The notes: a model not told the origin generated them from the letters alone. Positions 5,819 through 9,595 are shown, numbered from the stretch's first letter. The stretch is DNA of 64,000 nt from Candidatus Woesebacteria bacterium (GCA_963784785.1 CAWASW010000015.1:2149-66148), one strand, 5' to 3'. Numbers and translations are program-made.

Positions 5819-6245
5819 TGCACGCTGTAATTAATATTACATTATTACTGTTCTTACTAACAGTGTAATATGTTTTTTCTGTACTACCTGCCTTTGGATC
5901 AAGCGGTATAGAATCAAGATATGGTTTCATCTGTCCAGATATATCCAGACATGATGCCTCTGCATTTATACATACAGTATTACATCCACTAGATAAAGTA
6001 CCTAACTGTCTTACTTTTTCGTCGATTCCAGCTGGAAAAGATTTGTTTTTAATTATAAATCTATACATTGCAGTTGATATATTATTGACGTCACTCCACC
6101 TTCTAGCGTTTCTTCCTTCGGCGAATTGAGTTATTGGATCTAGAGACACAAAAACAATTGTTGCTAATATTGCAATAATTGTTAAGACAATTAACATCTC
6201 TAGTAATGTAAACCCCGATTTGTGATTATTTAATTCATAATTCAT
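5781..6245 (-). CDS. type IV pilin (major-pilin-like paralog 3)
   Basis: Likely start MNYELNNHKSGFTLLEMLIVLTIIAIL. Conserved RNARRWSDVNNI. Variable middle with Cys. Ends ...IQVSR. Confidence 0.85.
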   Translation of the reverse strand: MNYELNNHKSGFTLLEMLIVLTIIAILATIVFVSLDPITQFAEGRNARRWSDVNNISTAMYRFIIKNKSFPAGIDEKVRQLGTLSSGCNTVCINAEASCLDISGQMKPYLDSIPLDPKAGSTEKTYYTVSKNSNNVILITACNAENNATIQVSR

Positions 6246-6267
6246 AATTCGTAATTCATATTTGCAT

Positions 6268-6642
6268 TTATATTTCAATCCAACTTGTAACTTGCACTGT
6301 GGTGCTACGTACTGCACTTATCTGCACACTTTTACTATAATTAAGAATAGTAGCACTGACGGTAAAAGTCCAGTTATTTCCAACGTTAGTGATTCCAGTG
6401 ACACTGCAGGTCCCCTCAGGGATAGTAAAACTAGCAGAAATTGCATTATTATTATTTAACCTCAAAAGTGCATCCTCAGCACAGCCTTCAACAAGAGCTA
6501 ATGTCTGCTCTCCTTTTTCACTTGATAACGAAGATTGAATATCATTAATCGAAAGCAAAGAGACAGAAGTTCCCACAATTAAGACCACTGCAAGTATTAC
6601 CAAAACTGATGTTATAGCAATATATCCACGATTATTTTTCAT
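6268..6642 (-). CDS. minor pilin, PilX-like
   Basis: Likely start MKNNRGYIAITSVLVILAVVLIV, a PilX-type N-terminus. Small secreted domain. Confidence 0.6.
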   Translation of the reverse strand: MKNNRGYIAITSVLVILAVVLIVGTSVSLLSINDIQSSLSSEKGEQTLALVEGCAEDALLRLNNNNAISASFTIPEGTCSVTGITNVGNNWTFTVSATILNYSKSVQISAVRSTTVQVTSWIEI

Positions 6643-7151
6643 TTTGATCTTACCTCCGCACTTCCAGCAAAAGTTCCAGTTTTTTGCCATTCTTGTCTTG
6701 TACCATCCACGCTTAATGTAAATCCAAATTCGATATTATTAGAAAGAATTCCACTCGATCTATTTGTGAATGTTAGTGCAGATGCTATTACCTTATTGCT
6801 AGTTAGTGAAACATCATTTGTCATTGCCGTACAATTTACAGATCCCCCACCCCACGCCATTTTAATTACTCCGCCAGATAAATATATTCTAGTAGGATTT
6901 CTGGCAGGAGTACTTGATGCTAAACATAAATCTCCGACAGCAACGGAGTTTATTGCAGAGGCATTTCTAATTTCGTACATAATCTTTTTAGAAACAAAAC
7001 GTTGATCTTCATTTATCAACAGCTGGACATTAGCTTTAACGCTACCATAAATGATATCCCATGCAAAAAGTACTGCACCACTAATAAAAATGGCAACCAA
7101 TCCCATATATAGAATTAGCTCGATTAGGGTAAATGCTTTATAAATTTTCAT
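6639..7151 (-). CDS. prepilin-type N-terminal cleavage/methylation domain protein (minor pilin, PilW/FimT-like)
   Basis: MKIYKAFTLIELILYMGLVAIF prepilin signal. Confidence 0.75.
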   Translation of the reverse strand: MKIYKAFTLIELILYMGLVAIFISGAVLFAWDIIYGSVKANVQLLINEDQRFVSKKIMYEIRNASAINSVAVGDLCLASSTPARNPTRIYLSGGVIKMAWGGGSVNCTAMTNDVSLTSNKVIASALTFTNRSSGILSNNIEFGFTLSVDGTRQEWQKTGTFAGSAEVRSK

Positions 7152-8956
7152 ATTCTTCTAAATGCAAAACTATATGGACTATTAATGGCCTGTGGTAAAG
7201 TCAGTTGCAACACCGCACCATCTGTATTGGTCCAGGTAAATGCAGGAGCTGTTGTCATAACTAAACGTTTAGCAAACAAATCACTAGAGCTGTCTGAGGT
7301 CATCGATAGTAACTGATCCTTACTTAGCGGATCCATTTGTAAATCAATATATCTCGGACCGTTTGGAGCAGGTGCTTGAGCAGCATCAGTTTGTTTAACA
7401 AAGGATCCATTGTTTCCCACGTACCAATCTATCAGATTTGAACCTCGGTCAGCATATCGCACTATCGACCTAGTGGTAGCCCCAGATATTAACCATGCAG
7501 TTGAGACTATTTTTGATCCTGCGATAGGAGTAGCACATGAATTATCGGGGTCATTAGTATTTGTCCAGGCAGTTCCACTCCAATAACCCACCTGTAAATC
7601 ACTTCCACCGTTACCAATTGAGGCAAAAACTATTTGATCTGTATCTGGATTTGCTGAAATATCCAAATTTGTCGCATCATTAGCCCATGTAGGTGGATTT
7701 GTAACAACAGCATTCCATGTACATCCAGTTACACCAGTTGCAGTACAGGTTCTATATCTAACCCCATTTACAGTTGCACTTCCAGCTGAATTTGACCAGA
7801 TGACCATCACATCCCCCGATGAAGATTCATATTCAACATCAAAATCTTCGATATCTTGAGCTACTGCAATTATCTCCAACGACGCCTCAGTAACTGCTGT
7901 TGGTTCATTACCCCAACCAGTTCCGTTCCATACCATAGCAGATAGATCAGATGCGGAATCTGCCCAGATAGCAGTAATTAAATTTGAATTTGAACGTCTA
8001 TCCCAAGCCATCTTGACCCACTGAACAGTTCCAGTAGTTCTAACAGGATCAAGATTAGTTGCCGCACCCCAATTTGCAGTTCCACAAGCGGAGCCACCTG
8101 ATTTTGTACGATACGCCATTTCATTTGTGGTTCCAACATTTGTGCCGTACAAAACTATTGCATCACCTGAATTAGTTTCATACGAAATATCAAATCTTCT
8201 TGTTGTTCCTGCACCACCAACGGTAGTAGTCCACTCATTTACCCAAGTAGATCCATCAAAACACATGACTTGTAGCACACCTCCATTTGTAACGTAACCG
8301 GCTATCGCCTCAGTTTTTGTTGGTGAACTTCTAATTGTAAATGTTTGACCAGAAGCTCCTAAAATTGTTGGCGACTCTACTGAAAAAGCATTAGTAGAAG
8401 TATCAAAAGATCTGTACTTTGGTGTAGTCGTGGTATCACCATAAATTAGAAACCCTCCAGCTGCAAGGATTGATTTTCTAAAGTTAGTCAAATAAGTAGT
8501 TAGTGTTACAGCGTTACTACGAAGTGGTGAAAATAACCAACTGACAACTGAGGTCACCTTTTTAATATCAGAATCTAATGTTCCTCCTGAGGCAACAATA
8601 TTTCCAGAGACATCTCGATTGACGTCCGATACTGTAACTACTCGGGTATATTTACCCAGAGTATTGTTTAGCCCGCTCCAGGCCCAACTAACACCATTTA
8701 GCCCAAGACCACATCCTCCCGTACATGTTGTGGCTATAAAGGGGCTGGTCCAACCTTGGTTTTTAATAGATTTTACTGCATCAATTCCTGCTTGAGCAAA
8801 AAGATTGGCTGTTGTTTCTTCTTCACCCAACCTGTTAGTAGAAAAACTTCCGGTTACTGTCGTAACTCCTGCAACAGCGATAATAACAAACAAAGACATT
8901 GCAACAATTATTTCGACTATTCCAAAACCGTCATCCTTTCTTAATTCATAATTCAT
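7148..8956 (-). CDS. large minor pilin / pilus-tip adhesin-like protein (602 aa)
   Basis: MNYELRKDDGFGIVEIIVAMSLFVIIAVAG prepilin-like N-terminus followed by a ~570-aa T/S/G/N/W-rich domain. Confidence 0.7.
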   Translation of the reverse strand: MNYELRKDDGFGIVEIIVAMSLFVIIAVAGVTTVTGSFSTNRLGEEETTANLFAQAGIDAVKSIKNQGWTSPFIATTCTGGCGLGLNGVSWAWSGLNNTLGKYTRVVTVSDVNRDVSGNIVASGGTLDSDIKKVTSVVSWLFSPLRSNAVTLTTYLTNFRKSILAAGGFLIYGDTTTTPKYRSFDTSTNAFSVESPTILGASGQTFTIRSSPTKTEAIAGYVTNGGVLQVMCFDGSTWVNEWTTTVGGAGTTRRFDISYETNSGDAIVLYGTNVGTTNEMAYRTKSGGSACGTANWGAATNLDPVRTTGTVQWVKMAWDRRSNSNLITAIWADSASDLSAMVWNGTGWGNEPTAVTEASLEIIAVAQDIEDFDVEYESSSGDVMVIWSNSAGSATVNGVRYRTCTATGVTGCTWNAVVTNPPTWANDATNLDISANPDTDQIVFASIGNGGSDLQVGYWSGTAWTNTNDPDNSCATPIAGSKIVSTAWLISGATTRSIVRYADRGSNLIDWYVGNNGSFVKQTDAAQAPAPNGPRYIDLQMDPLSKDQLLSMTSDSSSDLFAKRLVMTTAPAFTWTNTDGAVLQLTLPQAINSPYSFAFRRI

Positions 8957-8961
8957 AATTC

Positions 8962-9429
8962 TTAATTTGTGTTTATCCCTCCTCCAACATTTACAGTTAC
9001 TGTTGCAGTTTCTTGATTTGTGTTTATGGTTACAAACATTGCGCTTGACGGTTCTCCGCGTAAATTAAAGGTGGTATCGTTTAGGTTTGTGACAGTCACA
9101 CTACTAGGAATTGTAAAATCTTCTTTAATAGTTGGACTAGCACATGACCCTGAATAAAGCCTAATATTTGTACCATTCTTGCATATTCCCCATATAGCAT
9201 TATTTTTCTTATTCATAGCGTTTCCTTGTGATTTTCTAATGGAAGAAACTACTTTATCTATTGTCGTATCAAAGTTAGTTTGAAGTACAAAATTTGCCAA
9301 AAATGGAGAGGTTGCAGCACCAAGAATTGCAATTATAGAAATTACTAAAAGTAACTCGATTAATGTAACACCAGATGAATTATGAGGTATGAAGTATGAA
9401 TTATGAAAAAATTTACTATATACTTTCAT
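8962..9429 (-). CDS. pseudopilin (GspH/FimT-like) with extended leader
   Basis: ...GVTLIELLLVISIIAILGAA prepilin motif. The 19-aa leader is encoded by 7-bp repeats (ttcataattcatacttcatacctcataattca). Confidence 0.7.
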   Translation of the reverse strand: MKVYSKFFHNSYFIPHNSSGVTLIELLLVISIIAILGAATSPFLANFVLQTNFDTTIDKVVSSIRKSQGNAMNKKNNAIWGICKNGTNIRLYSGSCASPTIKEDFTIPSSVTVTNLNDTTFNLRGEPSSAMFVTINTNQETATVTVNVGGGINTN

Positions 9430-9557
9430 ATCGCATTTGAAACAACTTTGTTATAATCTGTTTTTGGCAAACTAATGCAAAGACGAATAATTAATTTTGA
9501 AAATTGATAAGTTCTTTCGTATGTGTCATTTTTGTAATTCATTTTGCATATCTATTT

Positions 9558-9595
9558 TTCATACTTCATACTTCATACTTCATACTTCATACTTC
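9558..9595. repeat. (TTCATAC)5 heptanucleotide tandem repeat
   Basis: Five perfect 7-bp units plus a partial unit. They sit directly downstream of the pilC stop (9600-9602) and ~130 bp upstream of the pseudopilin start at 9429. The minus strand reads (GTATGAA)n. Confidence 0.9.

Follow-up and report, generated by a model that had tools for sequence, protein, structure and literature searches.

Heptanucleotide repeat arrays at start codons and prepilin leaders in a type IV pilus operon of a Candidatus Woesebacteria bacterium

Introduction

Direct repeats with a unit of seven nucleotides occur in the intergenic DNA of marine Beggiatoaceae, Cyanobacteria and Bacteroidetes, where the TAACTGA repeats adjoin, or extend into, the start codons of genes without a ribosome-binding site and have been proposed to act in translational regulation (MacGregor 2015, PMC4679880). 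These repeats show 7-nt insertions and deletions between strains, and close relatives have shorter spacers without repeats (PMC4679880). Here we describe four arrays of another heptamer, ATGAAnT, within the type IV pilus operon of a Candidatus Woesebacteria bacterium. The arrays are located in a 64,000-nt stretch of DNA (GCA_963784785.1 CAWASW010000015.1:2149-66148), referred to throughout as the window, and a first-pass annotation had interpreted them as the hallmark of phase-variable surface genes.

Several other repeat systems offer points of comparison. Mazel and colleagues reportedly described, in 1990, short tandemly repeated repetitive (STRR) heptanucleotides of cyanobacteria, which fall into many families, are largely intergenic and show lineage-specific abundance. 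Rickettsia palindromic elements, said to have been reported by Ogata and colleagues in 2000, are non-autonomous, multi-copy, conserved in sequence and inserted in frame, leaving the open reading frame (ORF) intact. In the opa genes of Neisseria, CTCTT repeats occupy the leader, a long perfect tract follows the start codon and every change in unit number shifts the frame. A true heptamer phase-variation device is the (ATCTTTC)n simple sequence repeat (SSR) of the H. influenzae genes hmw1A and hmw2A, whose expression is inversely proportional to tract length (PMC8262952, PMC12721329); in the transcript, the tract makes up one arm of an extended hairpin, which is cut by RNase III, and it has a natural minimum of eleven repeats (PMC12721329). 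In F. psychrophilum, 8 of 12 listed variable-number tandem repeat (VNTR) loci consist of heptamers in intergenic DNA, including one with the unit AATTCAT; across 53 isolates, repeat numbers at the eight typed loci varied between one and nine, and the VNTRs of one isolate were unchanged through 12 passages (PMC4501049). A 2025 tree-of-life survey of short tandem repeats does not mention heptamers (PMC12699852).

The homologues of the PilC protein encoded in the window place its host among Candidate Phyla Radiation (CPR), Microgenomates-like bacteria, with Woesebacteria and Levybacteria as the named neighbours. Type IV pili are considered a key part of how CPR bacteria live as episymbionts, and to our knowledge little is known about the control of pilus gene expression in this group. 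We favour, as the probable explanation of the arrays, that they are lineage-specific insertions or expansions belonging to a widespread class of heptamer SSR, kept at permissive positions and tolerated because the units re-create a start codon and lie in a leader that is removed by cleavage.

Results

Four period-7 arrays lie within the pilus operon

The minus strand of the window carries a type IV pilus operon in the order two response regulators, pilB, pilC and then a series of prepilin-like genes with N_methyl motifs (Table 1). Using Tandem Repeats Finder (TRF), we detected four arrays with period 7 in this operon, all inside 3.4 kb, and named them A to D. The ATGAAnT units are read on the minus (coding) strand in A, B and D and on the plus strand in C, whose inverted orientation the first-pass annotation had described correctly, as it had the presence of all four arrays. 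A scan for at least three consecutive ATGAAnT units with no more than one mismatch per unit returned exactly these four sites in 64 kb, compared with 0.17 expected from Markov shuffles. Across the window as a whole we counted nine arrays with period 7, where 0.35 would be expected, and enrichment is confined to this period. Although the AT-rich composition of the window (33% GC) favours low-complexity matches, chance similarity does not account for these counts in the shuffle nulls. Nor are the arrays an assembler artefact, because their sequences are identical in L002, a contig of a Logan assembly that was made independently from this sample. Chance or artefact as an explanation is thus effectively refuted.

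The Logan contigs of the sample (ERR12037365) break within the 38-bp perfect tract of array D. The end of L001 (7700-7734) and the start of L002 (1-30) both lie exactly 30 nt into this tract, which is where a one-cycle de Bruijn graph with k = 31 would be predicted to break, and perfect heptamer tracts of at least 38 bp will systematically fragment k = 31 assemblies. Exact-protein look-ups with PilC, a 170-aa pilin and the 602-aa pilin found no sample other than ERR12037365.

Table 1 Positions of the pilus genes, heptamer arrays and related features in the window
Feature	Position	Strand	Description
pilB	10642-12285	-	pilus operon member
pilC (T2SSF platform protein)	9600..10637	-	Pfam T2SSF, E = 1.3e-60; stop codon 9600-9602
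first pseudopilin, 155 aa	8962..9429	-	N_methyl domain; abnormal 20-residue leader MKVYSKFFHNSYFIPHNSSG/VTLIE
602-aa pilin-like protein (minor pilin)	7148..8956	-	weak N_methyl; start codon within array B; identical call in L002
type IV pilin, 154 aa	5781..6245	-	N_methyl E = 1.6e-9; L002 gene call begins at MNYEL
array A	6231-6260	-	TRF 4.3 copies, 91% matches; ATGAATT ACGAATT ATGAATT ATGAATT A
array B	8938-8967	-	TRF 4.3 copies, 91% matches; AAGAATT ATGAATT ATGAATT AAG...
array C	9375-9410	+	TRF 9375-9407, 4.7 copies, 84% matches; degenerate ATGAAnT, inverted relative to the genes
array D	9555..9597 (periodic 9558-9595)	-	TRF 5.4 copies, 100% matches; perfect (GTATGAA)5.4
single-copy core of insertion, 144 nt	9411..9554	-	holds the new pseudopilin ATG (9427-9429) and first 6 codons
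AGAATGT, AGATTTA, GAATTAA, ATTGGAA/ATTGAAA-type arrays	21403-21436, 22042-22069, 22135-22165, 22736-22758, 35770-35801, 50619-50650		within coding sequences
perfect (ATTGGAA)3.3 tract	22736..22758	+	inside ORF of polysaccharide gene cluster
degenerate ATTGGAA-type tract in MurC	50619..50650	-	coincides with 6-residue in-frame insertion

Three of the arrays contribute to coding sequence. Array A fills the 22-nt spacer 3' of the upstream stop codon (6268-6270) and encodes the first five residues, MNYEL, of the leader MNYELNNHKSG/FTLLE (a slash separates each leader from the residues that follow it). The 154-aa pilin starts at the penultimate unit of this array (ATG 6243-6245). The sequence MNYELRIMNYEL, which had been given as the product of array A, is not encoded, as the ATG of the first unit is out of frame and the second unit reads ACGAATT; the in-frame reading is ...KYELRIMNYELNNHKSG/FTLLE, corresponding to the peptide ...KYELRIMNYEL.... 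Array B spans the pseudopilin stop codon as well as the start and leader (MNYELRKDDG/FGIVE) of the 602-aa minor pilin. No Shine-Dalgarno (SD) sequence is present upstream of the start codons inside arrays A and B, and SD use is very low in the window as a whole, an SD core (GGAG, GAGG or AGGA, 4-18 nt upstream of the start) being found at 5 of 55 genes. On the coding strand, array C encodes approximately residues FHNSYFIPHNSS of the pseudopilin leader, while array D is intergenic and begins 4 nt after the pilC stop codon. Thus, only three pilin genes carry an array, rather than at least four as had been proposed, and array D forms part of the same insertion as array C. The longest perfect runs are two units in A, B and C and 5.4 units in D. 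Nor does every unit combine an ATG with a TGA, since ACGAATT, AAGAATT and ATGAGGT are degenerate. Our data do support the view that these are genuine SSRs at the 5' ends of genes for surface structures.

The pilus loci of relatives lack the arrays

We compared the window with eight relative loci: L006 (PilC 89% identical), L007 (86%), L008 (the same locus as L007 in a second sample), L009 (84%), L010 (69%), L003 (54%), and L131 and L132, which served for the third junction and whose pilin is 75-77% identical. At the sequenced junctions of L006-L010, L131 and L132, each upstream stop codon either overlaps the following start or lies almost directly against it (AGATGA, ATATGA), and all three junctions share this ancestral state. 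The pilC stop of relatives overlaps the pseudopilin start (ATGA). The leaders of the relatives, L003 included, are short and rich in lysine. They read MKSNSG/VTLIE, MKVRSG/, MKFEKG/ and MKNG/ in the orthologues of the pseudopilin, and MSINKG/ and MSTKSLPAGRRG/, both without the repeat, in those of the 602-aa pilin; 10 orthologues of the 154-aa pilin have MKK-type leaders, and MKKG/ and MKKILTNNKG/ are also among the leaders found. The leader DNA of L007 is ATGAAAGTAAGAAGT, which can be compared with native leader starts of the form ATGAAA....

None of the relatives' loci has a heptamer array at the junctions, and their pilus operons are intact without them. Period-7 arrays number one, a weak one, in ~62 kb of the relatives' sequence versus nine in the 64-kb window. 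Alignment of the DNA reveals array A to be an insertion or a replacement relative to L131 and L132. The absence of the arrays from relatives indicates that they are recent, lineage-specific gains.

An independent observation concerns pilB of the relative with 86% identity, which is called as two ORFs (340 and 206 aa) in the contigs of both samples (L007 3754-5396 and L008 832-2474) and may represent either a genuine split or a shared frameshift.

Arrays C and D are the arms of a foldback-like insertion

Between the pilC stop and the conserved G/VTLIE of the pseudopilin, the window contains ~220 bp that the relatives lack. This segment is a single foldback-like insertion, bounded by array D as its left arm and the inverted array C as its right arm. 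The arms form the inverted repeat I1 (9555-9590 versus 9375-9410), the strongest in the window, with a length of 36 nt, 92% complementarity and a separation of 144 nt. For the insertion, the folding energy is -33.3 kcal/mol (z = -5.0) at the DNA level and -49.9 kcal/mol (z = -3.7) at the RNA level. Neither the rest of the window nor any of the fetched loci has another copy of the 144-nt core between the arms, which is absent from L006, L007, L009 and L010. No Rfam family was found in the insertion, the sole match being a sub-threshold one arising by chance (18 bits versus a gathering score of 86).

The pilC-pseudopilin spacer is now 170 bp long; the ancestral ATGA has become ATAA, so that pilC ends in TAA and the old pseudopilin start is lost. 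The pseudopilin now begins at an ATG within the insert (9427-9429), and its 20-residue leader MKVYSKFFHNSYFIPHNSSG derives in part from the inverted array C.

We also considered a multi-copy miniature inverted-repeat transposable element (MITE) or foldback transposon. Terminal inverted repeats are present, but the core is single-copy in the window and the fetched loci and no target-site duplication is visible, and this assignment was rejected.

Simulated unit gain at the start-codon arrays leaves the proteins unchanged

Slippage was simulated explicitly by adding units to, or removing units from, each array. At arrays A and B, gain of one or two units gave an identical protein, because only the ATG of the penultimate unit, which lies at a fixed distance from the gene, reads through; a reading that opens at the ATG of any unit j ends at the TGA in unit j+2. 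Thus, with the start codon lying within the repeat, the frame corrects itself. Loss of one unit from A or B removed the sole in-frame ATG, since the adjoining upstream unit reads ACG or AAG. Such a loss leaves a single ATG-bearing unit, so reversal would probably not occur readily. At array C, gain or loss of one unit caused a frameshift, while a change of three units altered the leader length in frame, three additional units lengthening it. Array D is intergenic, and changes in its unit number affect no reading frame.

The proposal that any gain or loss of a unit would shift both frame and start codon, as a reversible ON/OFF switch, therefore finds no support in the silent gains at A and B, and it is unlikely that the four arrays act as a classic frameshift switch. 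What is left of the phase-variation interpretation is, weakly, the presence of mutable repeats at surface genes; as a frameshift switch it fits poorly with the simulation and with the shortness of the tracts.

Heptamer arrays occur elsewhere in the window and in metagenomes

Period-7 arrays of other units are located within coding sequences of the window (Table 1), affecting genes for a Wzy-like O-antigen ligase, a neighbouring polysaccharide-cluster ORF, IleRS and MurC. The insertion in MurC, at ...IGNWKLEIEN..., corresponds to a gap in the alignment to the PDB MurC structure 9ir5. The presence of heptamers in MurC, IleRS and polysaccharide genes suggests that expansions arise broadly and persist where they are tolerated. 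An array reported by TRF with the unit AATTCAT (25699-25737) was not counted, being weak (71% matches, 14% indels) and, by eye, part of the conserved N-terminal portion of a GT4 glycosyltransferase.

Scanning metagenomes for (ATGAAnT)3.7, we obtained at least 120 loci. Among the matches listed, the GC content of the contigs ranges from 24 to 66%, the arrays reach 18 units, and most are intergenic and often stand beside arrays of other heptamers; the 120 listed loci contain 260 period-7 arrays versus 3-40 for each neighbouring period. In 14 of the 91 listed loci with enough flanking sequence, the array has an inverted partner at a distance of 1-279 nt, demonstrating that the foldback arrangement recurs. 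In these 91 loci, arrays within 80 nt of a gene start are oriented toward it in 39 cases and away from it in 42, showing no forward bias of the kind that TAACTGA has in BOGUAY. Nor was a general association of ATGAAnT with pilins seen, as pilus genes are present in 2 of the 120 listed loci and none of these arrays has an adjoining prepilin signature. Among viral contigs, 42 loci carry (ATGAATT)3.7, compared with 10, 16 and 41 for three permuted heptamers of the same composition. With permuted heptamers about as frequent, ATGAATT is common rather than singular, and its candidacy as a uniquely favoured cross-phylum element was dismissed. The only true orthologous pair among the listed loci, which was selected by the search pattern, comprises L097 (2344-2369) and L129 (948-973); both have a perfect (ATGAATT)3.7 array of identical length and position between flanks that are ~81% identical (~19% divergence).

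Two further features of these collections were observed. In L034, L045, L047, L059, L095, L113 and L119, the sequence TAnnTTTG, which we take to be the -7 promoter box of Bacteroidota, comes no more than ~7 nt after an (ATGAAnT)4 array; two such boxes on opposite strands, as in divergent promoters, enclose the array of L034 and that of L095. L004, a distant metagenome-assembled genome labelled Cloacimonadota, has eight period-7 arrays in the spacers of its own pilus locus (1589-2042 and 11020-11620). Their units are unrelated (AGGATTA, CTGACAC, AACTCTC and others), and several of them form inverted blocks, among other places directly after pilC.

Other features of the window

Near the end of the pilus locus, the window encodes an rve-family (IS3-like) integrase (803-1570), separated from the locus by a 765-aa ORF (1944-4241) without a Pfam match. 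Two Y1 (IS200-like HUH) transposase genes are present at 29627-30061 and, with a weaker match, at 41924-42595, where the gene adjoins ftsA. The weaker gene is accompanied by 26-nt inverted copies of a ACCTTTAAAGGT-containing palindrome, one just upstream of its start (41897-41922) and the other in its 5' part (42391-42416), a pair that resembles the arrangement of repetitive extragenic palindromes and their associated tyrosine transposases (REP/RAYT). An FtsZ-like ORF (39059-39826) has only 255 aa and the GTPase domain alone, and overlapping neighbour ORFs suggest a split or frameshifted gene.

Discussion

Heptanucleotide SSRs appear to form a class that is widespread in bacterial intergenic DNA and especially abundant in this SD-poor CPR (Microgenomates-like) genome. 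In an operon as compact as that of the pilus, arrays would be expected to survive only at weakly constrained stop/start junctions and in the segment encoding the prepilin leader, which is cleaved. Every ATGAAnT unit brings an ATG, which three units in a row place in each of the reading frames, and an insertion thereby restores a start codon by itself; according to our simulation, the penultimate unit would always supply an in-frame ATG and a leader beginning with MNYEL. At the pilC junction, the ~220-bp insertion removed the ancestral overlapping ATGA, created the 170-bp spacer and donated both an ATG and the 20-residue leader. A likely consequence is that translational coupling of pilC to the pilin has been lost. 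The 36-bp stem could act as a processing or stability element in the operon mRNA, and slow length change of the VNTR type would probably alter spacing and stem length more than frame.

Several points weigh against this interpretation. It offers no source for the 144-nt core and no mechanism for the creation or spread of arrays, and at the outer edges of the insertion no direct duplication of a target site is visible, nor is there another copy of the core. The 64-kb window has its four arrays of this unit family confined to 3.4 kb, a tighter grouping than expected of tolerated junk. This clustering could stem from co-regulation, or from gene conversion acting locally among the 5' ends of paralogous pilin genes; seeding from native ATGAAA... 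leader starts is also possible. Finally, the equal array length in L097 and L129 hints at selection on such arrays.

Selection for a cis-acting element would take the tracts as sites bound by a nucleic-acid-binding protein or the ribosome (S1/Csp-type), a role that has been suggested for the TAACTGA repeats, or their ATGA relays as setting minor-pilin translation, with the 36-bp stem acting in stability or as an RNase III element and thereby separating pilin expression from that of pilBC. Such a role is consistent with the scarcity of SD cores, the placement of A and B exactly at start codons, the mini-ORFs of array A, which chain the upstream stop to the true start (TAA-ATG, ATGA, ATGA), the stability of the stem as both DNA and RNA, the length conservation in the orthologous pair and the clustering of the ATGAAnT family in one operon. 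In addition, the hmw heptamer SSR provides a precedent as one arm of a long 5'-untranslated region (UTR) hairpin cut by RNase III (PMC12721329). The same element, however, has no orientation bias toward downstream starts and no association with pilins in the listed metagenome loci, is about matched in frequency by permuted heptamers and is absent from all close relatives, whose pilus operons are intact. We consider a selected element doubtful. Slipped-strand mispairing at a contingency locus, switching pilins ON and OFF or changing leader length and so diversifying the pilus tip, is unlikely, despite the fact that the genes encode surface structures, namely type IV pilins with N_methyl domains. 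Loss of a unit from A or B and unit changes at C would indeed have the effects that such a switch needs, intergenic heptamer VNTRs including AATTCAT do vary among F. psychrophilum isolates (PMC4501049), and the heptamer SSR of the hmw adhesins is a proven phase-variation device (PMC8262952, PMC12721329). Against this, unit gains at A and B are silent, and with perfect runs of only two units at A, B and C a loss would probably not be readily reversed. The sole long perfect tract is intergenic, runs of 2-5 units here compare with at least 11 in the natural hmw tracts (PMC12721329), the VNTRs of F. psychrophilum were stable over 12 passages of one isolate (PMC4501049), and similar arrays reside within the essential genes for MurC and IleRS.

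Far less probable still is a recombination device, in which the inverted arrays (9375-9410 versus 9555-9595, 8945-8964 or 6231-6260) would invert DNA as an inverton or pilin-cassette switch and the direct arrays would delete pilin genes. I1 flanks the 144-nt core and a further inverted repeat, I9, flanks the entire pseudopilin gene; moreover, the best promoter-like match of the region (TTGGCA-16-AATAAT, 10/12) lies in the core and faces away from the pilins, toward which an inversion would turn it. Promoter-like matches are, however, fewer than in shuffles (14 versus 20), and inversion would delete the pseudopilin ATG, leaving a TTG and a 34-residue hydrophobic leader. The 40 ORFs scanned include no tyrosine or serine invertase (Phage_integrase, Resolvase), the rve and Y1 transposases that were detected both lying at a distance, and a single orientation is present in both assemblies. 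Speculatively, arrays that bear ATG and TGA might constitute a portable start module of SD-poor bacteria, providing stops for incoming frames, starts in every frame and an ATGA mini-ORF relay (MNYEL followed by a stop). The relay would hand terminating ribosomes to the next gene in steps of two units, and unit parity and stem length would tune minor-pilin translation with the protein unchanged. We regard this idea as a long shot; were it true, tuning by unit parity would be a form of translational phase variation distinct from frameshift and promoter-spacing switches.

Returning to heptamer insertions that are tolerated at permissive positions, the locus shows how common but poorly understood repeats can invade a compact operon and rewrite its starts and leaders while the genes survive, and the relatives provide a clean comparison of the states before and after. 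It also serves as a warning that a repeat with a non-triplet unit near a surface gene need not be a frameshift switch. Should the arrays modulate pilin translation or mRNA processing, they would offer a rare entry point to the study of how CPR bacteria regulate their genes.

How does this locus compare with the known systems? STRR units are richer in G+C than the arrays described here, and we know of no report of STRR units forming start codons or leader peptides; a TGGGTCA array in another of our loci, L005, resembles STRR2. As with the Rickettsia palindromic elements, a palindromic insertion has joined an ORF, but in our case the core has one copy and simple repeats make up the arms. The likeness to opa is that a repeat of non-triplet unit occupies the leader-coding part of a surface gene; the difference is that the start codon lies within the tract (A and B) or the tract is degenerate (C).

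The AATTCAT unit of F. psychrophilum is the reverse complement of ATGAATT, although the heptamers of that species serve only as typing markers with no described role at gene starts or in leaders (PMC4501049). The hmw genes share with the pilus locus a heptanucleotide SSR at a surface gene that forms one arm of a hairpin. Their tracts, however, comprise at least 11 units (13-24 in the cited constructs) and lie between two promoters in the 5'-UTR, whereas the partner arm here is an inverted copy of the repeat, with the right arm inside coding sequence. Closest in character are the TAACTGA repeats, head-to-tail 7-nt units with built-in stops, a few of them in ORFs and with other heptamers in the same spacers. 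The window shows the same specific enrichment of period 7 (units ATGAAnT, ATTGGAA, AGATTTA and AGAATGT), starts without SD in A and B, and array-free orthologous sites with shorter spacers in relatives. Unlike TAACTGA, ATGAAnT carries an ATG, so that the repeat itself provides the start and encodes a leader peptide that is cleaved off. Other differences are the host, a CPR bacterium, and the lack, in the arrays found elsewhere (91 listed loci), of the forward orientation bias known from BOGUAY. Thus, the pilus locus is a well-documented new example of a known, poorly understood class of repeats.

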